Source: Caldisericia bacterium (GTDB lineage Bacteria; Caldisericota; Caldisericia; JAAYUI01). Taken from it: a stretch of DNA of 64,000 nucleotides. A program made the position numbers and the translations under genes. Shown in pieces: positions 22,297 through 33,473 of this stretch. Where the stretch lies: the NCBI GenBank assembly GCA_963674785.1, contig OY771555.1:1824001-1888000 (forward strand), given 5' to 3'. Numbering within the stretch: position 1 is the stretch's first letter; the number at the start of each line of letters is the position of its first letter. The notes under the pieces were generated by a model, which was not told the DNA's origin, ran no database searches, and saw only the letters and a program-made list of their open reading frames with translations.

Positions 22297-23316
22297 TCAT
22301 TTCAAACTTGATCTCATATAGGTTCCACCTGGAAGTTTTTTTATAATATTTTTCAAATCTAAAACTGTTAAAACTGGTAAAACAGCCTCCGGAGGAAGAT
22401 TTAGAGCTGTGCAAAGTTCATCTAGTGTAAGCGGATTTGAACAAGCTGCAACAACCTTTGATTCAAGATCGCTTAAAACAGTTTCGTTACTCTGAAGACC
22501 CACACCAAGGACTTCAAGCACATCATTTGGGGAATCAACGAGGATCGCTGAATCCTTTATCAACCTGTTGCATCCAGCAAAACTGTTCATACCAGGAAGC
22601 CCTGGGCAAGCCATCACATCTCTTCCAAGCTCCATTGCTTTCCTTGCAGTTATTAATGCTCCAGACTTTTCTGGGGCTTCAACGACAACAATGGCAGATG
22701 AAAGTGCTGCAATTATTCTATTTCTCCAGGTGAATGTCCATTTGCCTGCAGGGAAATTATCTGGGAATTCCGAAACAATAGCTCCTTTTTTAATAATCCT
22801 CTCAGCAAAGGATTTTTTTCTACTTGTGAGCTTCCCGATACCTGAACCGATAACGGCAACAGTTGTTCCATCCGCATCAAGACAGCCTTCATGTGATGAG
22901 CTATCTATACCATCTGCAAGGCCTGAAACAATAGAAATACCAGAGCTTGCTATGTCTCTGGCAAACGATCTTGCAATGTGCATGCCCTGAGGTGTTGCCT
23001 TTCTTGTTCCAACCATGGCAACGGAATTTTTTGAAACTTCATTAAGATCTGCATTACCCCTCATAAATAAACAAACCGGTGGGCTTTCAAGGTGAAAAAG
23101 CGCCACCGGATATTTTTCATCATCCTGAGTAATAATCTCAGAATCAGACTCTCTTAACTCAACCTCAGCAAACTTTCGGGCTTCGCTGAGGGCTTTCTTA
23201 TCAATACTACCTAGAATACTGTCCGGACTATTTTCTTTTACAGCCGAACAGATGGAAGGCTTCCTGCTTGCAAGAATTGCAAGAGTCAACCAATCCAATC
23301 TAGATAACTCACTCAC
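22297..23316 (-). CDS. dprA: DNA-processing protein DprA
   Basis: VGTRKAT, VSGLADGID, RNRIIAALS, VVEAPEKSGALITA, C-terminal winged helix. Confidence 0.95.
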   Translation of the reverse strand: MSELSRLDWLTLAILASRKPSICSAVKENSPDSILGSIDKKALSEARKFAEVELRESDSEIITQDDEKYPVALFHLESPPVCLFMRGNADLNEVSKNSVAMVGTRKATPQGMHIARSFARDIASSGISIVSGLADGIDSSSHEGCLDADGTTVAVIGSGIGKLTSRKKSFAERIIKKGAIVSEFPDNFPAGKWTFTWRNRIIAALSSAIVVVEAPEKSGALITARKAMELGRDVMACPGLPGMNSFAGCNRLIKDSAILVDSPNDVLEVLGVGLQSNETVLSDLESKVVAACSNPLTLDELCTALNLPPEAVLPVLTVLDLKNIIKKLPGGTYMRSSLK

Positions 23317-23582
23317 TATAGCTTTTTATTATAGACCCAAGTCAATGAAGCCAAACCGGTGAAAACCAAAAAGGCACCGAAAGAGGCAACAACCCACTGC
23401 TGAAATGGAGTTTTGTCAAGCAGATATTTCATACTTCCTGCCGAACTCATCAATCTCTCAACTCTTTTAATGTTGTCGGGTCGAATGGCATCCCATACCT
23501 CAAGACCAATTATCAAACAAAGACAGAGGGCTGCAAGCGCCACAAGGACAAACATAATTGCGGTTGCTTTTTCTTCCTTCAT
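23316..23582 (-). CDS. small two-TM membrane protein, last gene of the Rieske/cytb-Flx operon
   Basis: Two hydrophobic segments; abuts the neighbouring genes. Confidence 0.7.
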   Translation of the reverse strand: MKEEKATAIMFVLVALAALCLCLIIGLEVWDAIRPDNIKRVERLMSSAGSMKYLLDKTPFQQWVVASFGAFLVFTGLASLTWVYNKKL

Positions 23583-23831
23583 CTATTTTTCCTTTCCTAA
23601 CAAATTCTCAAAAAATGATACTTTTCTTGTGATTCTTCCCCTTGCCTTTTCAGATGCATACATCCCAAAAACGAGAAGAAACATCGAAACCAAAAAGAGC
23701 AAAAAGAAAACAATAATCTGAAAATAGAGCATAAACCCACTAAAATCAGATTTGACTAAATTTACTATCTGAGAAACTGAGAATATCGCAGCAAACAAAG
23801 CCAAGAAGAAAAGTATCAAATGTTTGTTCAT
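23583..23831 (-). CDS. small two-TM membrane protein in the Rieske/cytb-Flx operon
   Basis: Two hydrophobic segments; 1-nt overlap with the cytochrome b stop, GAGG SD. Confidence 0.7.
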   Translation of the reverse strand: MNKHLILFFLALFAAIFSVSQIVNLVKSDFSGFMLYFQIIVFFLLFLVSMFLLVFGMYASEKARGRITRKVSFFENLLGKEK

Positions 23832-25885
23832 TATTCGGCTCTCACCTCTACCAAACCAGGGTCAATTCCGAGTTTTTCAGCAAGAACTTTCTTTTTATTG
23901 GATTTCCTCATACGCCACCAGACATAAAGCAGGAAGGCAACAATAAACACAAAAGCATTAAAGAGAAGAATTGCATTTATATACAACTGTCTTTGAGCAT
24001 CTTGGAACGGAATCCAATAAGCAGCCAATGAACCAAACAAGAAGAAGGTTAGACCGCCAATCGCAAGCGTGATAAGTCCAGGTCTTCCCTTGGCTGATCT
24101 TTCGGGTCGTTTGTCAAACAGTGGAAACATGACAAGGAAAACAATGAATAGTAGCGTAACGAGTGTTCCAACATATCCCGGAAGGAATTTCAAATAGAAG
24201 TAGACAAATAGGAAATACCAATCCGGCAGAATATGGTCGGGCGTTTTTACGGTGTTCGGAGGTGGTTCGTTTGCCGCAGGCAGATATAAACACGCGGAAA
24301 CAATTACAACCACAAGCAATAGTATTGCAATCCAATTTATCTTTGGTCGCTTTTTCCTTGATCTGATAAAGTATATCTCTGCCATCATAAATAGAAGGAT
24401 CGGCAAGAAATAATGGATAATATTGAATCTGAGGATTGTTGTTTGTCCAACCTGATGAGCTCCAAGACCCATATACTTTAGAGCTGAACCAAGACCTAAT
24501 TGTCCAATAACCGGCATACTATCCAGAGAATTCATCATCTGAGTACCAACAGTCGTAGCCCAGTATGCCCTTTGGTCGAATGGAAGAAGGTAACCTGTGA
24601 CACCAGAGAATGTTATTAGAACGACAATGATTGTAAGGAGTATCCAAGTAAGTTCGCCTGGTTTTTTAAACTCACCACAGAAAAACATTCTTATCCACCT
24701 AAGCATAAGAAGTGCAATAATTCCGTATGCACCATATCTATGGATTCCTCTTATCCACTGGGTAAGAGGTTTTTTTGAGATTTCTGCAACAGAATTATAA
24801 GCTCTGGTTACTGTCACGCCCAAATCTTCTGTGATTGTGTCGGCAGATTTTCCCATCAAACCAGTAAGTTCTTCAACAGCAATCTTCACAGCATCATCTT
24901 TACCATGGGCAAAATGATGGAGCTTTTCTTTCTGTTCTTCCGACAGGTTAGCAAAAATTGGTTCAAGTTTTTGAGATTCTTCGATTGCATCGGGAATAGG
25001 TAATCCAGCATATGTTGTACCATCAATGACTTCAGCTTTTGTTTTTCCCGCAAACTGAAGAATGCTTCTCTCATAATCAGTGACCGTATCGCTTTCCTTG
25101 AGCATTGCTTCATCTGCTTCAGCAATCATATCATCAATTGTGATAGTTGTCTTTTCACCATTTTCAATCTTTGCTATAGGTAGCCCATAAGAAAGAAGTG
25201 TTGTAGAATCCTCGCTCAACCTATAAATAGAAAACAACTCAATGATATGGTCTCGAAGAACATCAGCTTCATCAATGGCCTCGGTTATCTGAGTTTCTCC
25301 ATGATATGTTCCGGCAACCAAATCATCAGCATCCTCAGAGGCAAGTTCCATGATTTTAAGATAGTTTTCATCACAGGCAACTTGCTCTTCATCTGTCATC
25401 TTCTTGTATTCTTTTTCATGACTTTTACCAAGAGTAATGAGTCCCTCAAGGTCTCTGACAGGTGAATCGATCTCAAGATTTTCGACTACATATTCAAAAT
25501 CCTTTTTTCCAACAACCTCAAAAATCTCTCTCTGGTGTTCAGAATCAAAATCATAATGCTCGATAAAAAGATGATGAATCTCCTCTGCCTCTTCCATCAC
25601 CATCTCATATGTATGTCCATGTGAATACGTAACAAGCCCGGGTTCAACTTTATCAACTGGTGTGGTGTCAGGAATATAGAGGAATGTCAACACAAGCCCG
25701 AGGCAGACCTGCAAAATGAGCAACACATATATCATAGAACCCATCCAGTAGAATGGATTCGATTTCTTATACTCAGGTGTATTTTCATCCAGAATATTCA
25801 TATTCTGGGCTCTATCTCTCCACCATCTCATCCACTTTTTCGAGAAGTTTGAGAGCCAAATTGCAAATTTATCTGTAATACTCAC
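23831..25885 (-). CDS. cytochrome b (Rieske/cytb family) with ~285-aa insert; Qo motif PDWY, bL His retained, bH His replaced
   Basis: IRGIHRY, FKKPGELTW, TGYLLPFDQRAYWA, GQTTILRF..IH, TPDHILPDWYFL; His382/His491 present, Arg396/Tyr505 at the bH positions. Confidence 0.92.
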   Translation of the reverse strand: MSITDKFAIWLSNFSKKWMRWWRDRAQNMNILDENTPEYKKSNPFYWMGSMIYVLLILQVCLGLVLTFLYIPDTTPVDKVEPGLVTYSHGHTYEMVMEEAEEIHHLFIEHYDFDSEHQREIFEVVGKKDFEYVVENLEIDSPVRDLEGLITLGKSHEKEYKKMTDEEQVACDENYLKIMELASEDADDLVAGTYHGETQITEAIDEADVLRDHIIELFSIYRLSEDSTTLLSYGLPIAKIENGEKTTITIDDMIAEADEAMLKESDTVTDYERSILQFAGKTKAEVIDGTTYAGLPIPDAIEESQKLEPIFANLSEEQKEKLHHFAHGKDDAVKIAVEELTGLMGKSADTITEDLGVTVTRAYNSVAEISKKPLTQWIRGIHRYGAYGIIALLMLRWIRMFFCGEFKKPGELTWILLTIIVVLITFSGVTGYLLPFDQRAYWATTVGTQMMNSLDSMPVIGQLGLGSALKYMGLGAHQVGQTTILRFNIIHYFLPILLFMMAEIYFIRSRKKRPKINWIAILLLVVVIVSACLYLPAANEPPPNTVKTPDHILPDWYFLFVYFYLKFLPGYVGTLVTLLFIVFLVMFPLFDKRPERSAKGRPGLITLAIGGLTFFLFGSLAAYWIPFQDAQRQLYINAILLFNAFVFIVAFLLYVWWRMRKSNKKKVLAEKLGIDPGLVEVRAE

Positions 25886-25899
25886 CTATCTCCTCCTTC

Positions 25900-26742
25900 T
25901 CAAAATACCGGCATTTCATCAACTTGTGCAGCTGAGAAAACTGGACCATCCTGACATACATAGTGATGTCCAACATTGCACCGACCACATTTTCCAAATC
26001 CACAATTCATTCTTGCTTCAAGTGAAACAAAAATGTTTTCTTTTGGGAAGCCAATCTTATCGAGTGCTATCAATGTGAACTTGATCATTATCGGTGGACC
26101 AGACGCTATAACTGCAGTATTGGTAAATCCTGGGTCATCCTTAAACAGAAGCGATGACTTGTTTGCGAATTCTTTATCATAGAACTGAGGTACAACACCT
26201 ACATCGTGAGTCCAATTTTTGTCACCGTTATCAACAGTCAGCTTGATGTCAAAGTCTTTGACAGATTTCCATTCATCAAGTTCTGGTTTGAAAACAAGGT
26301 CACCTGGTGTTCTTGCTCCATACAAAAGCTCCATTCTTTTGAAGTCATTTCTGTTATCAAAAGTATACTGCATAATGTTGCTAATAGCTGGAAGCCCAAC
26401 ACCACCAGCCATGAATGAAATATTCTTGCCTTTAAGTTTGTCTACTGGGAAGCCATTTCCAAATGGTCCCCTGAATGTGAGATTGTCACCAACTAAGTGC
26501 TCATGGATTTTTTCAGTAACCGCACCAACACTGGCAATAGTAAGCTTGATAAATCCCTTCTGAGTTGGGGATGAACCGATAGAGATTGCGGATTCACCAA
26601 CACCCGGAACACCAACAATACAAAACTGACCAGGATTATAATTCAAATCATTCTTGAGTTTCAGCTTGAATGATTTTATAGACTCTGTTTCATTGATAAT
26701 TTCTAAAATTTCAACTATTTCTGGTTTTGACATATCTGTCAT
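25900..26742 (-). CDS. FAD/NAD(P)-binding [2Fe-2S] oxidoreductase (FlxA / sulfhydrogenase gamma / AsrB-like)
   Basis: PGQF...GESAISI, RGPFGNGF, GGVG, YGART, GPPIM, CGFGKCGRC...VCQDGP; AGGAGG SD before ATG 26742. Confidence 0.9.
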   Translation of the reverse strand: MTDMSKPEIVEILEIINETESIKSFKLKLKNDLNYNPGQFCIVGVPGVGESAISIGSSPTQKGFIKLTIASVGAVTEKIHEHLVGDNLTFRGPFGNGFPVDKLKGKNISFMAGGVGLPAISNIMQYTFDNRNDFKRMELLYGARTPGDLVFKPELDEWKSVKDFDIKLTVDNGDKNWTHDVGVVPQFYDKEFANKSSLLFKDDPGFTNTAVIASGPPIMIKFTLIALDKIGFPKENIFVSLEARMNCGFGKCGRCNVGHHYVCQDGPVFSAAQVDEMPVF

Positions 26743-27782
26743 AAAACACCTCCTAATGAGGCTAATGTGTCTGCAAGAGAGATTCCAGCAGGACAAAGGT
26801 CTGTGCATCTTCCACAACCTGTACATGCAATCTCGCCATAGAGAGTCACATGATATTCAAATTTATCCAAGATTCTGTTTTTGAATCTGTCAGCGGTTGT
26901 TGGTCGCGGGTTGTGTCCGGATGCCTCAAGGCTGTATGTGCAGAAACTACAAGAGTCCCAGCATTTAATCTTTTCAGATTCATCTGGTTTCGTCTTGATC
27001 TCTCTGGTTTCAAAACAGTGACATGTCGGGCAAAGAAGGGTACAGACACCACATGTGATACAACCCATGCTAACTTCTTCCCAAACATCTGTTTTCTTGT
27101 AGAGATCCATGAGTTTTCCGGCGTTTTCTGTTGGAACCTTCAAAGTAATCATGGATTCACATTTTTTGTTTGCCTCAGCCTGGGCAGCAGCGGGATTTCC
27201 ATCATCTGTGAAGAAGGATTTATTATCAGCAAGGAATTTTTTTCCTTTTTCTGAAACCTGCATCACAGTGTATCCACCAATGTCTGGAATAAAGAGAAGG
27301 TCTGAACCCTTTTCATCTGCAGGATGAATTCCAAGTGATGTACATGAACAGGTTGAAAGAGGTTTTGTGCAGGCAACCGAAAAAACAAGGGTTTTTTCAC
27401 GATGTTTCTTCCACTGTGGATCAATATGCTTCTGCTCTCCACCATCTTTTCTTTTTGTGTCCATAAAGAAATTATCAAGGAGCATAAATCCTTTTGCATC
27501 GCACGGTCTCACACCAAAAATTACAGTGTTCTCGATTTCAGGTGCTTCTTTAATTTCAAGTATTTTTCCAGCGGTCGATCTTGTTGTAAGAATTTTTTCT
27601 GTCTGCGGAAAGATAATCTCTTTTGGTGGTGTTTTTGTTCTAACTGTATCCAAATCTATTTTTGCATTTTCAGCAATTAGATGAAAATTTGTTGTTCCAT
27701 CAATCTTCTGAGGGACAAAAACTCTCGCATTATCAGAGATTGTAAGAAGAAGTTCGTTAAGTTTATCGTGTGTAATCTTCAT
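26739..27782 (-). CDS. 4Fe-4S protein (FlxB / sulfhydrogenase beta / AsrA-like)
   Basis: PKEIIFP, GVRPCD, CITCGVCTLLCPTCHCF, WDSC, CTGCGRCTDLCP. Confidence 0.88.
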   Translation of the reverse strand: MKITHDKLNELLLTISDNARVFVPQKIDGTTNFHLIAENAKIDLDTVRTKTPPKEIIFPQTEKILTTRSTAGKILEIKEAPEIENTVIFGVRPCDAKGFMLLDNFFMDTKRKDGGEQKHIDPQWKKHREKTLVFSVACTKPLSTCSCTSLGIHPADEKGSDLLFIPDIGGYTVMQVSEKGKKFLADNKSFFTDDGNPAAAQAEANKKCESMITLKVPTENAGKLMDLYKKTDVWEEVSMGCITCGVCTLLCPTCHCFETREIKTKPDESEKIKCWDSCSFCTYSLEASGHNPRPTTADRFKNRILDKFEYHVTLYGEIACTGCGRCTDLCPAGISLADTLASLGGVL

Positions 27783-27787
27783 AAAAA

Positions 27788-28780
27788 TCAACCCCCTAAA
27801 ACTTCCTCACCCTTTATGAGTGACAATGGGGATGTAGCCTTTTCAGAGATTCCAGCGGCAAATTCCCAGTTTTCCTTCTGCATCAGTCTGAGCTGGTCTG
27901 TAATAATATTCAATGGAATATTCTCAGGACACGCCCTTGTACATTCGCCACAACCAGTGCATCTGTCTGAAAGGTGGTAAAAGTGAATAAAATGATACTG
28001 CAGAATGTCTTTTAGTTCGTGTGATTTATGAATGAATGGTTCAGGAAGCTTCTGCCTGTCCATAACACAGTTCTCATTACAATGACAGCCTGGGCAGGCA
28101 TCTCTACACGCAAAACACATTACACATCTTGAGAGGTGTTTTAAAATGAAGTCCTGTCTCACATGGAATGGTTTATCTTTATATTCAGAAACCCAATCCA
28201 TATTCATTTCATCCTTTGACTCTCTTGGATCGTCATCTGGAATCAAAAGATCGAAGTTATCTGGTTTTGTGATTGAACAATGGATACATTTTGGAAGCAA
28301 CCAATCTTCTCTCTCGAGTTTCATCTTTGAACCATCGAGGAGTTCAAGCTGAATACTCTTTCCATCATCAATGATTTCTTTTGAGTCAATATGAAGTGAA
28401 TCTCTCATTCGAGATACATCAAGGTTTCCTGAGCAGTTTACTCCTAGTACCCAGAAACCGTGTCTGTCGAGTTTACTCTCAGAGACGCTGACTTTTATCG
28501 ATTTTGAATCACACCCTTTAACAAGAATTCCAATTTTTTTCTTTGGCTGTTTCAAAGATTTTATGAAGTTGCTTTTTCCTTCAATCATCCTCACAAGGTT
28601 TTGAGTGCAGAACGAATCGTAAACCAACTTATCAGCATCCTCTGCTGTCCTACAAACGAATGGTCTTCTTTTTCCAGATATTCCGTCTACTTTTCTATAA
28701 CCGATAAAAGCAGAGATTTTTCCAGAGTTAAGCTCATCTTTTACTACCTCGCGGAGGTACTCTAAAATCTGTGTGTTCAT
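27788..28780 (-). CDS. 4Fe-4S protein (FlxC / FdhB-FrhB-like)
   Basis: KGCDSK, KCIHC, CVMCFACRDACPGCHC, CTGCGECTRACP. Confidence 0.85.
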   Translation of the reverse strand: MNTQILEYLREVVKDELNSGKISAFIGYRKVDGISGKRRPFVCRTAEDADKLVYDSFCTQNLVRMIEGKSNFIKSLKQPKKKIGILVKGCDSKSIKVSVSESKLDRHGFWVLGVNCSGNLDVSRMRDSLHIDSKEIIDDGKSIQLELLDGSKMKLEREDWLLPKCIHCSITKPDNFDLLIPDDDPRESKDEMNMDWVSEYKDKPFHVRQDFILKHLSRCVMCFACRDACPGCHCNENCVMDRQKLPEPFIHKSHELKDILQYHFIHFYHLSDRCTGCGECTRACPENIPLNIITDQLRLMQKENWEFAAGISEKATSPLSLIKGEEVLGG

Positions 28781-29184
28781 ACAGCAACCTCCTTTTCAGC
28801 AAGATTCTTTTTTAGAGATGAGATTGTTCTTGTGAGTTGACCAGGGTCAAGCCTGTCTCTTTGAATGTAAACCATTCTCCATGGGTCAATTCCAAGAGCC
28901 TCAGCTACATTTTTTGCTGAGAAGACCCTTCTTTTTGCAAATTGGTTTCCATCAAAATTGTGGCAATCAAACTCGGGGCAGGCGTAAACAATAACACCAC
29001 CCGCACCCTCCATTAGTGACTTAAACATAACAATAGGGTTTACCATTCCAGCACAAGCAATTTCGACAAAATCGACGCTTGGAAACCTGTTTTTATGTTC
29101 TTCAAGATGTTTTCCTCGAAGAGAACCTTTACAATGAAGAACAATGATTTTCTCACCAATAGGAAGTTCTACTGACTTATGCAT
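28777..29184 (-). CDS. MvhD/FlxD-type [2Fe-2S] subunit
   Basis: Four-Cys pattern LHC...IACAGMVNP...GAGGVIVYAC...DCH..GN..AKRR typical of MvhD. Confidence 0.88.
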   Translation of the reverse strand: MHKSVELPIGEKIIVLHCKGSLRGKHLEEHKNRFPSVDFVEIACAGMVNPIVMFKSLMEGAGGVIVYACPEFDCHNFDGNQFAKRRVFSAKNVAEALGIDPWRMVYIQRDRLDPGQLTRTISSLKKNLAEKEVAV

Positions 29185-30239
29185 ATATCCCTCATTCCCT
29201 GGAGCAATCCTTTGCTCTCCATTCCTTCAAGTTCAATCACCTGAGGAAGACAACCAGCAACGCATATCCCACAAGCCTGACATCTTCTCGGCGTAACATA
29301 TGCAACCTGTTTGGTTTCAGTTCTGTTGATTTTATATGTTTTTTTGCTTATTGCATTTTTTGGACAAAGAGTAATGCATGCAAAGCAACCATTACATCTG
29401 GCAGGGTCAACTTTCGCTGCTTTTGTAATCTTTTTGCCAATAAGAGGTAATGCTACAAGCAGACCCACAATGCCAACCCAAACGATCTGTGCAATGTTTT
29501 GAGATGGCAGTTTTATCATCCATAATCCAACCCAATCAAATGAATATTTAGCAAATTTCATTTTCATTTCGGCTTCAGGGATTGGGAATAGTGCAATAAT
29601 TATTGCAAGGAAACCCAATGAGATAATCGTAAGAGCAATTGTTGGAACAATTGGTGGTCTCGAAATTCTGACGAAATGCCAAATGAGTCCAGCAAAAACA
29701 AGAATAGGAAGACCAATGTGTACAGCTCTGTAAATAACCAGCAGGGCACCAGAAGAAATCGACATCCCGAAGAACTCAACAATTTTAAATGACCTTGCAT
29801 CCATAGGAAGAATATATCCAGAAACAGTGATTCCAATGGTCATAATAAGAAGACCAATACCGACATACCAACCAACTGATCTTGTGCTTGTATGTCTTCC
29901 TGCAAAAAGTTTTCTGAGTAGATGCAATACAGCAAAGATTATCATTGCATCTGCTGCATACCTGTGGAGTGTTCTGATAAATAATCCATAAGGTACCATA
30001 TCAGACATAATGTAAAGAACAGAGTTTCTCGCATGTTCAATCGATGGCATATAAAAGAAACTAAGAAGGAACCCTGAGATTATCTGAACAAGAAAAAACA
30101 ATAATGTCAGAGAGCCAAGATGATTGAAAATATTAATTGATGAAAAACCTGCCTTTAAAACGTCAGCGATTCCAAGAAACCCATTAATGAAAAAATTAAA
30201 AGGTTTTCTAAGACTATAAGCATCTCGTCTACTCATCAT
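29169..30239 (-). CDS. cytochrome b (four heme His) fused to a C-terminal 2x[4Fe-4S] ferredoxin domain
   Basis: IRTLHRY...VLH (H92/H106), SGYILPMD, AVH...IWH (H174/H188); CNGCFACITLCP and CQACGICVAGC; no PEWY motif. Confidence 0.9.
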   Translation of the reverse strand: MMSRRDAYSLRKPFNFFINGFLGIADVLKAGFSSINIFNHLGSLTLLFFLVQIISGFLLSFFYMPSIEHARNSVLYIMSDMVPYGLFIRTLHRYAADAMIIFAVLHLLRKLFAGRHTSTRSVGWYVGIGLLIMTIGITVSGYILPMDARSFKIVEFFGMSISSGALLVIYRAVHIGLPILVFAGLIWHFVRISRPPIVPTIALTIISLGFLAIIIALFPIPEAEMKMKFAKYSFDWVGLWMIKLPSQNIAQIVWVGIVGLLVALPLIGKKITKAAKVDPARCNGCFACITLCPKNAISKKTYKINRTETKQVAYVTPRRCQACGICVAGCLPQVIELEGMESKGLLQGMRDICISQ

Positions 30240-30796
30240 GCTAGCCTTTCCGGAGTTTTTTTATCAATAATTATGCTTCCATCATCTTCAACAATAACCG
30301 TCCAAGGATGAAGAGGGCTTGGAGGTGGACCACCAAGGACTTTGGTCATAGTTGGGTCAAAGAAACCATCATGACATCTACAATGCCATGTTTTTGATTC
30401 TGTATTCCATCTGACAACACAACCAAGATGAGTACATTTTGCATCCCAAGCCATAAGCGTACCATTTGTATCCTTAATCAAAATTCCGGGTTCCCTAATT
30501 TTGATTGGCTTGTAAGGGATTGAACGATCTTCGGTGATGATCTCAAAAGAATATCCGACCATGCTTTCAAGCTCATCTTTTTTCGCAGGGACTGGTACGA
30601 AAGAATCACCAACGGGTTTCATGACGGATGCTAATTTGTTAACCGCAACGGGCGCTGGTGGCACCTCAAGTCCAATCTTACCAAATGGCTTCAAAAGTCT
30701 GAGAATCGGTGATAAAGCAGCTAGAATTGCTCCAAAAAAAGGAACAGCTAGCAGGACTTTTAGCAGTTGCCTTCGAGTGACCTTTTTTTCTTCCAC
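30236..30796 (-). CDS. Rieske [2Fe-2S] protein of a Rieske/cytb complex
   Basis: TRRQLL twin-Arg plus TM anchor, CTHLGC and CRCHDG boxes, GPPPSPL; AAGGAGG SD before GTG. Confidence 0.93.
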   Translation of the reverse strand: MEEKKVTRRQLLKVLLAVPFFGAILAALSPILRLLKPFGKIGLEVPPAPVAVNKLASVMKPVGDSFVPVPAKKDELESMVGYSFEIITEDRSIPYKPIKIREPGILIKDTNGTLMAWDAKCTHLGCVVRWNTESKTWHCRCHDGFFDPTMTKVLGGPPPSPLHPWTVIVEDDGSIIIDKKTPERLA

Positions 30797-30990: not shown

Positions 30991-31018
30991 AAAAAAGCGG
31001 GGCTCAAGCGAGCCCCGC
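30991..31018 (-). terminator. intrinsic terminator of the NHL/stalk gene
   Basis: Minus strand GCGGGGCTC-GCTT-GAGCCCCGC-TTTTTT. Confidence 0.85.
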
Positions 31019-31040
31019 CAACATAAAGTTTTTGTTTTAT

Positions 31041-33473
31041 TTACCCAATATTTGGGTTGACAGGATAGTAGATTTTGATTGACTTTGTTGCACCAATCCA
31101 CTCGACAGATGCACCAAGTGCTTCACTTATAAATCTGAGTGGAACAACAGTTCGACCATTGATGATCAATGGAGCCACAGACATAGAAACAACACTTCCG
31201 TTAACCATTGCTTCAGACACACCAACCCAAAGTATAACTTCTCTTCCTTCAAGTTTATATGTAACTTTTTTATCGGTTCCGTCCCACTCAATTTCTGCGC
31301 CGAGTGCTTCACCAATAAATCTTAGAGGAACGACAGTGCTACCATTTTTTATAACCGGTGCAGGGTCAACTGGCACCGATTCATTATTGATAATTGCAGT
31401 ATTGGAATTTATCTGCAACTCAATGAGATTACCGATTCTTCTTGCTTTGCACTCAATTGTCGCTGTTCCGCCATTTGATTTGATTGTAATTGTACCTGTC
31501 GCATCACCCCAGGCAGAAAGTTTTGAAACATCACAATACACCTTAACAGCAAGATTACCTGTGAAAGTATTATCTGAGAATCTTAACCAAGGAACGTCTG
31601 TTTCAATTGATCCACTAAGTGCCGCAGAAGTCGAATTTGTGATTGTAAATGAATCCTCTAGAATCCCTGATTTTGACTGTGGAAAGTTTATTGAAGTTTT
31701 ATCAACCGACAAAATTGGTTTTACAACGCCTTTTTCAAAAATCTGAACTCTCTGATTACCTGAGTCGAGAACATATATCTTGCCTTCACTTGTAGCAAGC
31801 CCGGTTGGATTATTGAATGTTCCAAGATGGCTCCAATAATCATCAATCGATGTTTTAGTATACATCGGTGTTTTGTCACCTTTTGAATACAAGTGTTTGC
31901 CATCAATTGAGAAAAAATGAAGTTTGTTGTTTCCGGTATCTGATACAACAACACTCAAATCATCGGTGATACAAATTCCAGTTGGATTTTTCATATTGAG
32001 AGATTCGCCAAACGATCTCTGGAATTCACCCTCTTTGTTGAAAACCTTTACTATTCCGTCTTCAGCATCAAGAACATAAATATTCCCATCCATACCATAA
32101 ACGAGATCAACAGGTTTTAAGAACTGTCCATCCTCAGAACCAAAACTTCCAAAATGGCTAACATACAATCCGCCCTTATTGACTCGTGTCACTCTACCAA
32201 ATAAGGTCGAGAGTGTCCATATTTCACCATTAAGCCCTGAAGAAAGCGCATTCATTTCGGGAATTTCGGCATCAAGTTTCAGTGTTTCAAGTTTAGAGCC
32301 GCTACAACTATAAAAAACAACTTCATGACTGCTTTTTTTATAACTGATTATCTGTTGGTTTGAATCTGTTGAAAGTGGGACAACAGATTGTTTCGATGCA
32401 TCGGTACTTCCTGCGGGACCACCCTCACCAAAAAACTGAATAGAGCCTTTACCAAGATCAAATACTGCCAAACCACCACCGGCACATGCCGCAACCGACT
32501 GAGGATCATTAAACTGCATTGGGTCGGCATCGAATTCAGATAGCTCTTTTAACAGTTCGCCCTTATCAGAAAGCATGAAAAATCTCTTGGAATCTACAAA
32601 AAATAAGTTTTTACCAGTAGCGACAAAATCTGTCGCGTTGTCAATTACAACACCGACACTTTCAATCAAATTTCCTGATTTTGAATATTTAGCCGACAGA
32701 CCATATTGAACTGTGAAGAGGAAAAGATCACCATTTTTGTCAAATCTAATTTTTCCAGCTTTTGGGTTCTTTTCTTCAGTTGCTAAAACATTCACTTCGC
32801 CAGTTTTCGTATAGTTGTCATTGAAAAAAGTTATTTTGATCTTGTTTGGTTCGATGTTATCTGGATTGTCTATCTCAGACTCAACAATTGAGAGGATTGC
32901 AATATCTCCGTCTCTCGAAACATCAACTGCAGTAATATTTGGAACATCGACACCTATGTTTATTGGTCTTTTAACATATTCGCCATGTGAATCATAGAGG
33001 ACGATTCCCTCACTTCTGTCAGCAACAAGGATTGACAAATCGTTCAATAAAAATGCAGAAATCGGGTTTGAAATATGGCTATTTATACCAGCACCAATTC
33101 TATTAATTATATCTCCACTTGTACTTGCTACGGTAACAAAATCATTTGAAATATAACAAATATTTCCCATTCTAGCAGAAATGGAAGTTTTTATCTCAGT
33201 AGGTAAAACACTTGATGGAAGCTTGAAAGACTTGAAATAATTTCCAGTCGAAAGATAAACTGAGCCGTTTCCTGTTGATCTGTCGATTACATATATTTTG
33301 TCGTTCTCATCGATTCCGATACAACCGGGTTTCATTAGCTGTCCACCAATTGGACCATAACCAATAACACCTGATGATTCATATTCTGAATCAGCAACAA
33401 GCCCAGAAACACCAAAATTTATAAAAGCAAAAATTAGCAAAAATGCAAGCATAAATGCAAGAAATCTTCTCAT
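31041..33473 (-). CDS. secreted NHL-repeat beta-propeller protein with BACON-like and stalk domains
   Basis: Signal peptide; GQFLKPVDL, VSDTGNNKL, FNNPTGLA...VLDSGNQRVQIF; two TVVPLRFI.EALGA.(I/V)EW motifs. Confidence 0.85.
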   Translation of the reverse strand: MRRFLAFMLAFLLIFAFINFGVSGLVADSEYESSGVIGYGPIGGQLMKPGCIGIDENDKIYVIDRSTGNGSVYLSTGNYFKSFKLPSSVLPTEIKTSISARMGNICYISNDFVTVASTSGDIINRIGAGINSHISNPISAFLLNDLSILVADRSEGIVLYDSHGEYVKRPINIGVDVPNITAVDVSRDGDIAILSIVESEIDNPDNIEPNKIKITFFNDNYTKTGEVNVLATEEKNPKAGKIRFDKNGDLFLFTVQYGLSAKYSKSGNLIESVGVVIDNATDFVATGKNLFFVDSKRFFMLSDKGELLKELSEFDADPMQFNDPQSVAACAGGGLAVFDLGKGSIQFFGEGGPAGSTDASKQSVVPLSTDSNQQIISYKKSSHEVVFYSCSGSKLETLKLDAEIPEMNALSSGLNGEIWTLSTLFGRVTRVNKGGLYVSHFGSFGSEDGQFLKPVDLVYGMDGNIYVLDAEDGIVKVFNKEGEFQRSFGESLNMKNPTGICITDDLSVVVSDTGNNKLHFFSIDGKHLYSKGDKTPMYTKTSIDDYWSHLGTFNNPTGLATSEGKIYVLDSGNQRVQIFEKGVVKPILSVDKTSINFPQSKSGILEDSFTITNSTSAALSGSIETDVPWLRFSDNTFTGNLAVKVYCDVSKLSAWGDATGTITIKSNGGTATIECKARRIGNLIELQINSNTAIINNESVPVDPAPVIKNGSTVVPLRFIGEALGAEIEWDGTDKKVTYKLEGREVILWVGVSEAMVNGSVVSMSVAPLIINGRTVVPLRFISEALGASVEWIGATKSIKIYYPVNPNIG

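Follow-up and report, generated by a model that had tools for sequence, protein, structure and literature searches.

A Rieske/cytochrome b operon of Caldisericota with haem and quinone sites predicted to be divided between two cytochromes b and joined to an NAD(P)-type module

Introduction

Complexes of a Rieske protein with cytochrome b are among the best-conserved energy converters, and a symmetrical two-haem cytochrome b and the Q cycle are their textbook constants. The present study deals with a stretch of 64,000 nucleotides from a Caldisericia bacterium (GenBank assembly GCA_963674785.1, contig OY771555.1, positions 1,824,001 to 1,888,000 of the forward strand; hereafter the window), in which nine co-oriented minus-strand genes at 23316-30796 encode a Rieske protein and two unlike cytochromes b together with MvhD- and Flx-like iron-sulfur (FeS) and flavin subunits. 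Do these proteins form one enzyme, and how would electrons pass between its quinol-oxidising (Qo) site and a module of the NAD(P)-binding type? Judged by architecture alone, the nine genes probably encode a single membrane respiratory complex, with the haem sites divided between the two cytochromes b and the haem wire opening at its inner end into the FeS and flavin subunits. A first-pass annotation of the window had read the cluster as a Rieske/cytochrome b core tied to an NAD(P)-type module, and this outline stands; its evolutionary story, its statement on the heterodisulfide reductase (Hdr) and the direction of electron flow that it named first need correction.

Results

The open reading frames (ORFs) of the cluster were located at the coordinates given in the first-pass annotation, with overlapping or abutting ends, and every domain named there was matched by Pfam. 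The most unusual feature of the cluster is its pair of cytochromes b. The larger one, cytb2 (23831-25885, minus strand, as are all nine genes; 684 aa; Cytochrome_B 3.4e-24, Cytochrom_B_C 1.4e-10), is of the full-length type; an acidic insert of ~290 aa separates its helices A and B on the outer side, and its Qo motif reads PDWYF. Its best solved match is cytochrome b6, and alignment to that protein revealed both ligands of the outer haem (H382 and H491), with R396 and Y505 in place of His at the ligand positions of the inner haem. The earlier designation as a 'second cytb' is therefore right as to family and needs correction as to the insert and the single haem-ligand pair. In an alignment of 17 cytb2 sequences, drawn from two Caldisericota families and from metagenome-assembled genomes (MAGs) labelled Melainabacteria, Vampirovibrionales, cyanobacterium, Armatimonadetes and 'bacterium', H382, H491, E503 and D555-W556-Y557-F558 do not vary, and conservation reaches at least 90% at R396 and Y505. 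Prediction from these ligands indicates that cytb2 can only bind the outer haem (bL). The protein measures 383, 490 or 665-684 aa in different genomes, a variation due to the acidic insert, which is therefore not part of the core. A role of the insert as docking site for cytochrome c was considered and dropped, as family f6 of the Caldisericota, whose cytb2 proteins of 383-421 aa lack the insert, nevertheless has the cytochrome c assembly gene.

The other cytochrome b, cytbFd (29169-30239, 356 aa; Cytochrome_B 1e-24, Fer4_7 2.9e-07), has six helices by eye and all four haem histidines (H92, H106, H174 and H188), a Qo motif reduced to a D-W remnant, and a C-terminal ferredoxin domain with eight Cys for 2x[4Fe-4S]. 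The four His and the eight Cys are invariant in alignments of 23 and 27 sequences. By analogy with cytochrome b, whose N-terminus lies inside, the ferredoxin domain should be cytoplasmic. Cytochrome b6 is again the best solved match in alignment, and the closest database protein, at 97% identity, is labelled Caldisericia bacterium. The position of the haem ci Cys of cytochrome b6 (~residue 40) is occupied by His in cytbFd, which is also the majority residue of the family consensus, and by Trp in cytb2.

Four haem histidines and a Qo motif thus never occur in one polypeptide here: cytb2 has the bL ligands only, and the four His are present only in cytbFd. No cytochrome b gene other than the cluster's two was found in the genome. 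Neither protein would by itself be a working bc-type cytochrome b, but the pair could provide a single Qo site, an inner haem, as many as two outer haems and an outlet to the cytoplasm. It is likely, and simplest to assume, that the two proteins are paired like the monomers of a bc dimer, with the electron crossing between the outer haems. As cytb2 lacks the inner haem, it could not recycle an electron alone, and cytbFd is the one visible outlet of its bL. Complex prediction of cytb2 with residues 1-270 of cytbFd lends weak support, with a median ipSAE of 0.41 (0.26, 0.52, 0.41) against a best value of 0.00 in three control predictions; contact agreement between the runs is at least 57%, and the partner pLDDT is at least 71, with alignments built for this study as input. 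Of 157 solved complexes, 116 pass the mark applied, as do 2 of 215 mismatched pairs; scores no higher than 0.60 were found in only 18 of those 157 complexes and in both of the mismatched pairs that passed. The pass of the cytb2/cytbFd model may derive from likeness to solved cytochrome b dimers.

The Rieske protein (30236-30796, 186 aa; Pfam Rieske 1.9e-07) bears a twin-arginine translocation (TAT) signal (RRQLL) and a membrane helix, indicating export to the outer side. Its cluster boxes are of the bc type (CTHLGC ... CRCH), disulfide cysteines included. The best solved match is 9rk3_A (2.1e-13), followed by the b6f and Thermus Rieske proteins; from its entry title ('similar to Rieske ... b6-f complex') we suspect 9rk3_A to be the anammox protein. 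Alignment to the b6f, Thermus and 9rk3 proteins places Gly and Phe at the Ser and Tyr sites of high-potential Rieske proteins, and replacement of this Ser/Tyr pair in the Rieske box by Gly/Phe has a bearing on the midpoint potential. Together with the PDWY motif of cytb2, these residues suggest that the Rieske protein of the operon is of the low-potential type; PDWY is associated with menaquinone and low-potential Rieske proteins in the accessible text of Kao and Hunte (2014; PMC4122944).

On the presumed cytoplasmic side, the MvhD/FlxD-like protein (28777-29184, 135 aa; Pfam FlpD/MvhD 6.6e-19) contains four Cys that could hold a [2Fe-2S] cluster. The FlxC-like FeS protein (27788-28780, 330 aa; Pfam Fer4 families) and the FlxB-like FeS protein of the sulfhydrogenase beta/AsrA type (26739-27791, 350 aa; Fer4_22 1.3e-28) are paralogues; the C-terminal part of the former resembles FdhB (8rvu_E, 8.5e-20), and the closest solved structure of the latter is sulfhydrogenase 1 beta (9nez_B, 1.5e-45). 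The FlxA-like FAD/NAD(P)/[2Fe-2S] subunit of the sulfhydrogenase gamma/AsrB type (25900-26742) is closest to sulfhydrogenase 1 gamma (9nez_C, 8.7e-50) and has complete FAD_binding_6 and NAD_binding_1 domains besides a DHODB_Fe-S_bind domain. Its longest ORF, 25900-26826, would give 308 aa; the start is presumably the Met at 26742, which gives 280 aa and a 4-nt overlap with the preceding gene, since the orthologues measure 280-300 aa. The cluster thereby holds the domain set of FlxABCD, that is, a FAD/NAD/[2Fe-2S] subunit, two HydB-like FeS subunits and MvhD. None of the operon proteins reached the curated cut-off of an NCBIfam model, the nearest names below cut-off being b6f Rieske, cytochrome b6, ShyB/HydB/AsrA and AsrB/HydG. 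An Asr sulfite reductase was rejected as identity of the module, as no sirohaem (NIR_SIR) match was obtained genome-wide and the scores for AsrA (126.4, cut-off 323.15) and AsrB (214.1, cut-off 288.6) were too low. The claim that the cluster contains no CxxCH does not hold to the letter, since one occurs within a Cys-rich FeS motif in each of the FlxB-like and FlxC-like proteins; both sit in cytoplasmic FeS proteins, and the underlying statement that the cluster encodes no c-type cytochrome is correct. Nor does it contain Hdr, hydrogenase or AsrC genes, as had been noted, and no CCG or HdrA gene was found in or beside it.

The operon is completed by two small membrane proteins without Pfam match, sm1 (23583-23831, 82 aa) and sm2 (23316-23582, 88 aa). 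A cofactor in sm1, sm2 or the acidic insert of cytb2 was considered and rejected, as none of the three has a family match and no CxxCH or Cys/His cluster motif was seen in them by eye. From the Rieske gene to that of the FlxA-like subunit, successive genes overlap by 4, 16, 4, 4 and 4 nt; a 14-nt gap separates the FlxA-like gene from cytb2, cytb2 and sm1 overlap by 1 nt, and sm1 and sm2 abut.

The neighbourhood is conserved elsewhere, as the first-pass annotation would have it. The same order was obtained in 10 Caldisericota loci, namely all six from the genome scan, which come from Caldisericales/Caldisericota MAGs and contain the nine genes, and all four that were cut out from family f6, where cytbFd shows 36-41% identity and MvhD was called in three of the four. 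Given this recurrence, chance does not account for the arrangement. A full-length cytbFd (E below 1e-40) was detected in 23 of 93 Caldisericota genomes: 11/11 in f1, the family of the window, 1/2 in f5, 11/13 in f6 and 0/67 in the others. The small protein sm1 is kept in all six close Caldisericota loci, one of the four f6 loci and one Vampirovibrionales locus (L011), and sm2 in the six close loci. Decay of the cytochrome b genes under relaxed selection, raised earlier as a possible objection, was not borne out: relative to the closest locus, dN is 0.13-0.29 with dS saturated, and dN/dS, computable for five of the nine genes, is 0.06-0.08. By this measure selection is purifying, and the operon genes, both cytochromes b and the small ones included, are not decaying.

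Among the 80 fetched loci, separate FlxB/FlxC-like genes were found only in six Caldisericota loci. Eight loci, all with non-Caldisericota labels, have a split form without Flx genes, in which cytb2-type, cytbFd-type and MvhD proteins are encoded separately; a Rieske gene was found in six of these eight and in 12 of the 80 overall, none of them of the fusion type. The three split-form loci annotated here lie next to FixO/cytochrome c or COX1 genes, and in L012 two small ORFs lie between the cytochromes b. Fusion is frequent: cytochrome b is joined to a FAD/NAD domain in 24 of the 80 loci (in L016, Pfam gives Cytochrome_B + Fer2 + FAD_binding_6 + NAD_binding_1), and MvhD shares a polypeptide with cytochrome b-ferredoxin in 30 of 49 cytbFd homologues. 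These patterns point to a conserved core of Rieske, cytb2, cytbFd and MvhD. Since this core also exists without Flx genes beside oxidases in other phyla, the NAD(P)-binding Flx-like module looks like an addition made in Caldisericota. In L016, L014 and L069 (labelled Gallionella, Turneriella and Chloroflexi), cytochrome b-FeS-MvhD fusions adjoin COX1-family genes; one of the three fusions carries a C-terminal cytochrome c domain, the L016 and L014 loci also contain SCO1, and L016 additionally has a UbiA-family gene.

The genome searched consists of one contig of 2.23 Mb and is estimated to be 92% complete; its coordinates are given below with the prefix G000:C1. For the quinone, a MenA-like prenyltransferase (108.8 bits, cut-off 102.15) and MenG/UbiE (217 bits, cut-off 158.35) were found. 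MenA-like matches at E of 1e-10 or below occur in 11/11 genomes of f1, 11/13 of f6, 1/9 of f7 and 0/60 elsewhere; among the 55 genomes that are at least 90% complete, the only f7 genome with such a match is also the only one positive for SdhB/FrdB. The MenA-like gene stands alone beside prophage-like genes for a tail tube, a Mu Gp36-like protein and a capsid (G000:C1:577778-583983), and the MenG gene, apart from it, adjoins a GlcD/GlcF-like pair of FAD oxidase and CCG protein. A link of the operon to a quinone is plausible from the PDWY Qo motif, the MenA-like and MenG genes, and the co-occurrence of the operon with MenA-like matches.

It had also been remarked that Rieske/cytochrome b complexes normally work with a cytochrome c and that none is encoded here. 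This holds for the cluster but probably not for the genome, which has CcmA, B, C, E and F and two candidate cytochromes c. Thirteen ORFs of the genome have a single CxxCH and none has more, so that there is no multihaem ORF. Two of them, adjacent and of 248 and 495 aa (G000:C1:1060877-1063259), each have a Cu_amine_oxidN1 domain and, on visual inspection, a hydrophobic N-terminus resembling a signal peptide, and the larger ends in a part weakly similar to Cytochrome_CBB3 (E 7e-4). They are candidates for surface-anchored mono-haem cytochromes c and possible partners of the Rieske protein; a c-type partner encoded elsewhere in the genome is likely. The cytochrome c assembly family is present in 11/11 genomes of f1, 2/2 of f5, 11/13 of f6 and 0/67 elsewhere, and CcmE is restricted to f1 (11/11 versus 0/82).

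A nuo operon for 11 subunits (A, B, C, D, H, I, J, K, L, M and N, without E, F and G; G000:C1:1734800-1744661) lies directly upstream of the F-type ATP synthase genes, and the high-scoring NuoH type is found within the phylum only in f1 (11/11). In the genome, no match was obtained for cytochrome bd, molybdopterin enzymes, Rnf, sirohaem reductases, NrfD or SdhB/FrdB; a tblastn search with five COX1/eNOR/FixO proteins from the fetched loci yielded no haem-copper oxidase, and NrfD is absent from all 93 Caldisericota genomes (0/93). In f6, RnfD is above cut-off in 13/13 genomes, and NuoH, cytochrome bd and the NarI type are found in 0/13 and SdhB/FrdB in 0/5 (genomes at least 90% complete). An Hdr cluster exists ~480 kb from the operon (G000:C1:1370058-1377254) and comprises HdrC (177 aa), HdrB (293 aa), a Pyr_redox_2/Rubredoxin_C protein (411 aa), a polyferredoxin (220 aa), MvhD (259 aa) and an HdrA-like protein (1019 aa); it is thus equipped with an MvhD and an NAD(P)H oxidoreductase of its own. 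The first-pass proposal that Hdr had been replaced by the Rieske/cytochrome b core is not supported, in view of this cluster and of the occurrence of the core without Flx in Melainabacteria-like and Armatimonadetes-labelled MAGs.

As regards the surroundings, Pfam identifies the upstream neighbour of the operon as an NHL/Cu_amine_oxidN1 surface protein and the downstream one as dprA, whose start shares 1 nt with the stop of sm2. A terminator-like hairpin on the minus strand (30996-31019; a 10-bp stem with eight G-C pairs and a T-run, a consensus match only) follows the upstream gene and is a candidate for the 5' limit of the operon transcript. No comparably strong minus-strand terminator match lies within the cluster, the others having three G-C pairs; the promoter scan was uninformative (19 sites versus 21.7 +/- 5.3 in shuffles). 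Four contigs of one RNA-labelled wastewater run (X1), 90-95% identical to the window and hence those of a relative, span sm2/sm1 and pieces of cytb2, and one of them, of 982 nt (25757-26738), bridges the FlxA/cytb2 junction. They document presence in an RNA library only, from which neither transcription nor a single transcript follows, and no meaning attaches to the parts that they leave uncovered.

A beta-propeller protein with Cu_amine_oxidN1 adjoins the operon in both f1 and f6. In the window it is the upstream NHL-type protein of 810 aa (31041-33473, minus strand); its f6 counterpart is of the PQQ_2 type and lies downstream of the operon (899 and 913 aa in L117 and L119, and ORFs of comparable size at the corresponding place in L116 and L118). 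The adjacency may be a coincidence, as proteins of this kind are common in these genomes. The f6 operon is preceded by a row of ORFs of ~160-200 aa (L119:215-3541; L117:10018-11039), among them a type IV pilin-like protein (N_methyl/T2SSG) and a prepilin peptidase-like protein.

Discussion

A close parallel is found in the anammox complexes of Kuenenia (Kuste4569-4574 and Kustd1480-1485; Hauser et al. 2025, PMC12954380), a resemblance with a different subunit set that the first-pass annotation had correctly seen. As far as the available text of that paper goes, they share with the window a Rieske/cytochrome b core carrying a cytoplasmic FeS/FAD/NAD(P) module, a proposed path from the b haem to NAD(P) and a doubtful inner quinone site. 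They differ in a b6-like four-helix cytochrome b with subunit IV, modelled as the usual dimer, in multihaem cytochromes c encoded in the operon and in Rieske potentials above +300 mV. In the window, the haem sites are shared out between two dissimilar cytochromes b, the added subunits are MvhD and proteins of the HydB/HydG type, the operon encodes no cytochrome c, and the Rieske protein and Qo motif are of a kind linked to low potential.

Fusion of cytochrome b to MvhD or to a FAD/NAD domain has been known since 2014, when a 'PDWF-FeS' clade of fused cytochrome b-4Fe-4S-MvhD and cytochrome b-ferredoxin-flavin proteins was described and, in the portion of the article at hand, stated to lack a Rieske partner (PMC4122944). 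In the same portion, the four His are treated as invariable and sequences lacking one were discarded, a filter by which proteins of the cytb2 type would drop out. To this clade and to the fusions of eNOR operons (preprint 10.64898/2026.01.22.701106, in its available part), cytbFd is homologous at 27-33% identity, with two haems and a D-W motif in common. In those cases the domains are fused into one protein, the neighbouring genes are oxidase or NO-reductase-like and no Rieske gene lies nearby, whereas the window has the domains as separate genes plus a Rieske protein and a second, mono-haem cytochrome b. The Melainabacteria-type loci (eight of the 80) have the four core parts in common with the window, namely Rieske protein, cytochrome b-ferredoxin, MvhD and a mono-haem cytochrome b whose motif is S/PDWYF, but have no Flx-like genes and adjoin a cbb3-type or COX1 oxidase and cytochrome c genes. 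A 'Complex III/IV' operon of Melainabacteria with petB and petC beside O2 reductases was described by Matheus Carnevali et al. (2019; PMC6349859), and the accessible account makes no mention of lost haem ligands or of ferredoxin/MvhD parts.

With the b6f and menaquinol bc complexes the window shares cytochrome b6 as best solved match, the Rieske boxes, the TAT signal and PDWY; it differs in having no subunit IV split, no cytochrome f/c1 gene and no haem ci Cys, and in the added cytoplasmic FeS and flavin subunits. With FlxABCD-HdrABC, sulfhydrogenase and AsrAB the domain set is shared, a likeness judged without Desulfovibrio Flx sequences; the order D-C-B-A and a position away from hdrABC, hydrogenase and asrC are particular to the window. 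Full-text searches, which do not extend to the supplements of papers, yielded no description of the Caldisericota operon. What appears to be new, on the sequences compared here, is the division of the haems and the Qo site between two cytochromes b and their joining to an NAD(P)-type module.

In the arrangement proposed, the Rieske protein and the PDWY Qo motif of cytb2 would form a menaquinol-oxidising site on the outer face, from which a chain would run through bL of cytb2, bL and bH of cytbFd, its 2x[4Fe-4S] domain, the [2Fe-2S] cluster of MvhD, the clusters of FlxC and FlxB and the FAD of FlxA to NAD(P)(H). This wiring is supported by the fusion of cytochrome b to MvhD or a FAD/NAD domain elsewhere. 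As to direction, we tentatively place first an NAD(P)H:cytochrome c oxidoreductase that incorporates a Q cycle, an assignment that falls short of an even chance. NAD(P)H would deliver its electrons to the Flx-like module, and menaquinone would be reduced by them close to or at the inner haem of cytbFd; menaquinol would be oxidised at Qo, one electron passing through the Rieske protein and cytochrome c to an outer acceptor and the second being recycled via the b haems. This direction would be downhill throughout, and the complex would stand in for the NADH-oxidising module that is missing from the 11-subunit Nuo. It is ranked first because it offers an entry of NADH for a Nuo without EFG, because no pathway to a strong outer oxidant was found, and because it accounts for the pattern of f6, which keeps the operon, the MenA-like gene and cytochrome c assembly without other tested quinone enzymes.

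Several observations weigh against this assignment. The quinone biosynthesis to which the first-pass annotation had tied its proposal is present only in part: MenA-like and MenG genes are there, but MenD and the MqnA/D family gave no matches, so that the pathway to the quinone ring is missing, and the ring would possibly be obtained by salvage. The MenA-like matches exceed the curated cut-off in only 3 of 93 genomes, most of those outside the genus of the window falling below it, and the prenyltransferase could serve another purpose. The co-occurrence of operon, MenA-like gene and cytochrome c assembly is suggestive, as it rests on two or three lineages and not on independent events. For the cytochrome c branch, the searches gave no terminal acceptor, so that the chain has no known end. 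Two GlcD/GlcF-like pairs, seen in the genome, are candidate quinone reductases, and in f6 the absence of another quinone enzyme applies to the families tested, type II NADH dehydrogenase, GlpD and ETF-QO not having been searched. An inner (Qi-type) quinone site is not recognisable in cytbFd, where the fused ferredoxin domain might cover it. Relatives of cytbFd are, by record titles, frequent in iron- and sulfur-oxidising lithoautotrophs. The available parts of the preprint on a Ferrigenium fusion related to cytbFd (10.64898/2026.01.22.701106) and of the anammox papers (PMC12954380) favour the opposite direction, from quinol to NAD+ or NAD(P).

That opposite direction, ranked second and on balance doubtful, is the quinol bifurcation named first in the first-pass annotation: electrons would be split at Qo, one going through the Rieske protein and cytochrome c to a high-potential acceptor and the other via the b haems, FeS clusters and FAD to NAD(P)+. 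It fits a mono-haem Qo cytochrome b whose sole visible exit leads into a second cytochrome b ending in low-potential FeS domains, and the Nuo of f1 could provide the menaquinol. The Rieske/cytochrome b complexes of anammox bacteria with NAD(P) oxidoreductase have been so interpreted (PMC12954380), and the cytochrome b-FeS-FAD-NADH fusion of Ferrigenium has been proposed as a quinol:NAD+ oxidoreductase (10.64898/2026.01.22.701106), as far as the accessible text of both extends; many relatives occur in lithoautotrophs and beside oxidase-like genes, a setting in which electrons are strongly pulled. The thermodynamic demand is considerable, however, since an outer acceptor well above ~+170 mV is calculated from textbook potentials (menaquinone ~-74 mV, NAD ~-320 mV), and a higher one in the presence of a membrane potential, while searches of the genome gave no match to an oxidase, a molybdoenzyme, NrfD, cytochrome bd or a sirohaem reductase. 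PDWY and Gly/Phe indicate a low-potential Rieske protein, as against more than +300 mV measured in the anammox proteins (PMC12954380, available text). Furthermore, in f6, which possesses the operon, none of the families tested supplied a recognisable independent quinone reductase, and a presumably fermentative heterotroph would have little need for an uphill production of NADH. The bifurcation to NAD+ considered earlier is thus demanding, and the opposite direction appears at least as likely.

The other alternatives are all improbable and follow in order of decreasing probability. The substrate of the Flx-like module might be polysulfide or sulfur, ferredoxin or an unlinked enzyme instead of NAD(P)(H), considering that its closest solved relatives are sulfhydrogenase 1 beta/gamma, that the nearest NCBIfam names are ShyB/HydB/AsrA and AsrB/HydG, that the membrane core occurs without Flx genes in other phyla, and that Caldisericum exile, the only cultured relative known to us, reduces sulfur compounds. 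This is improbable in view of the complete FAD_binding_6 and NAD_binding_1 domains of the FlxA-like subunit, the direct fusion of a FAD/NAD domain to cytochrome b in 24 of 80 loci and the lack of AsrC or any sirohaem protein in the genome; the sulfur reduction of sulfhydrogenase is, moreover, viewed as a side activity. Slightly less probable still, the operon might be shared by separate complexes, with MvhD and the Flx-like proteins serving an HdrABC-like enzyme and the Rieske protein and cytochromes b standing apart. FlxABCD of Desulfovibrio is a partner of HdrABC, an Hdr cluster does exist at G000:C1:1370058-1377254, and the structure prediction, weak in itself, covered the two cytochromes b only. 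Yet that Hdr cluster has its own MvhD and NAD(P)H oxidoreductase, MvhD is fused to cytochrome b-ferredoxin in 30 of 49 homologues, and the gene order with its overlapping stops and starts is held over a large divergence. The least probable arrangement, and a very improbable one, is confurcation, in which NAD(P)H from inside and reduced cytochrome c or Rieske protein from outside would jointly reduce menaquinone at Qo. It is allowed thermodynamically, as the calculated mean of ~-320 and ~+100 mV is near the ~-74 mV of menaquinone, and surface-type candidate cytochromes c are present; on the other hand, no consumer of menaquinol was found except a reversed Nuo, and a physiological benefit is not evident.

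Conclusions

A wider reading, bold and rather unlikely, would regard the core of Rieske protein, mono-haem Qo cytochrome b, di-haem cytochrome b-ferredoxin and MvhD as a phylum-spanning enzyme class with an obligately heterodimeric cytochrome b, by which, in Caldisericota, a strict anaerobe would make NAD(P)H through quinone bifurcation. One half of the heterodimer would oxidise quinol and the other would carry the low-potential electron into cytoplasmic FeS carriers; the eNOR- and oxidase-linked fusions of iron and sulfur oxidisers would then be reduced forms of this class serving reverse electron flow.

If the nine genes do encode one complex joining quinone to NAD(P)(H), they would offer a simple, multihaem-free system for asking whether the Qo site couples directly to NAD(P)(H), a question that also concerns anammox bacteria and iron oxidisers. 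The complex would explain how NADH is connected to the quinone pool in some anaerobes whose complex I lacks the NADH module, and would give a function to the cytochrome b-FeS-MvhD family of hundreds of uncultured bacteria.

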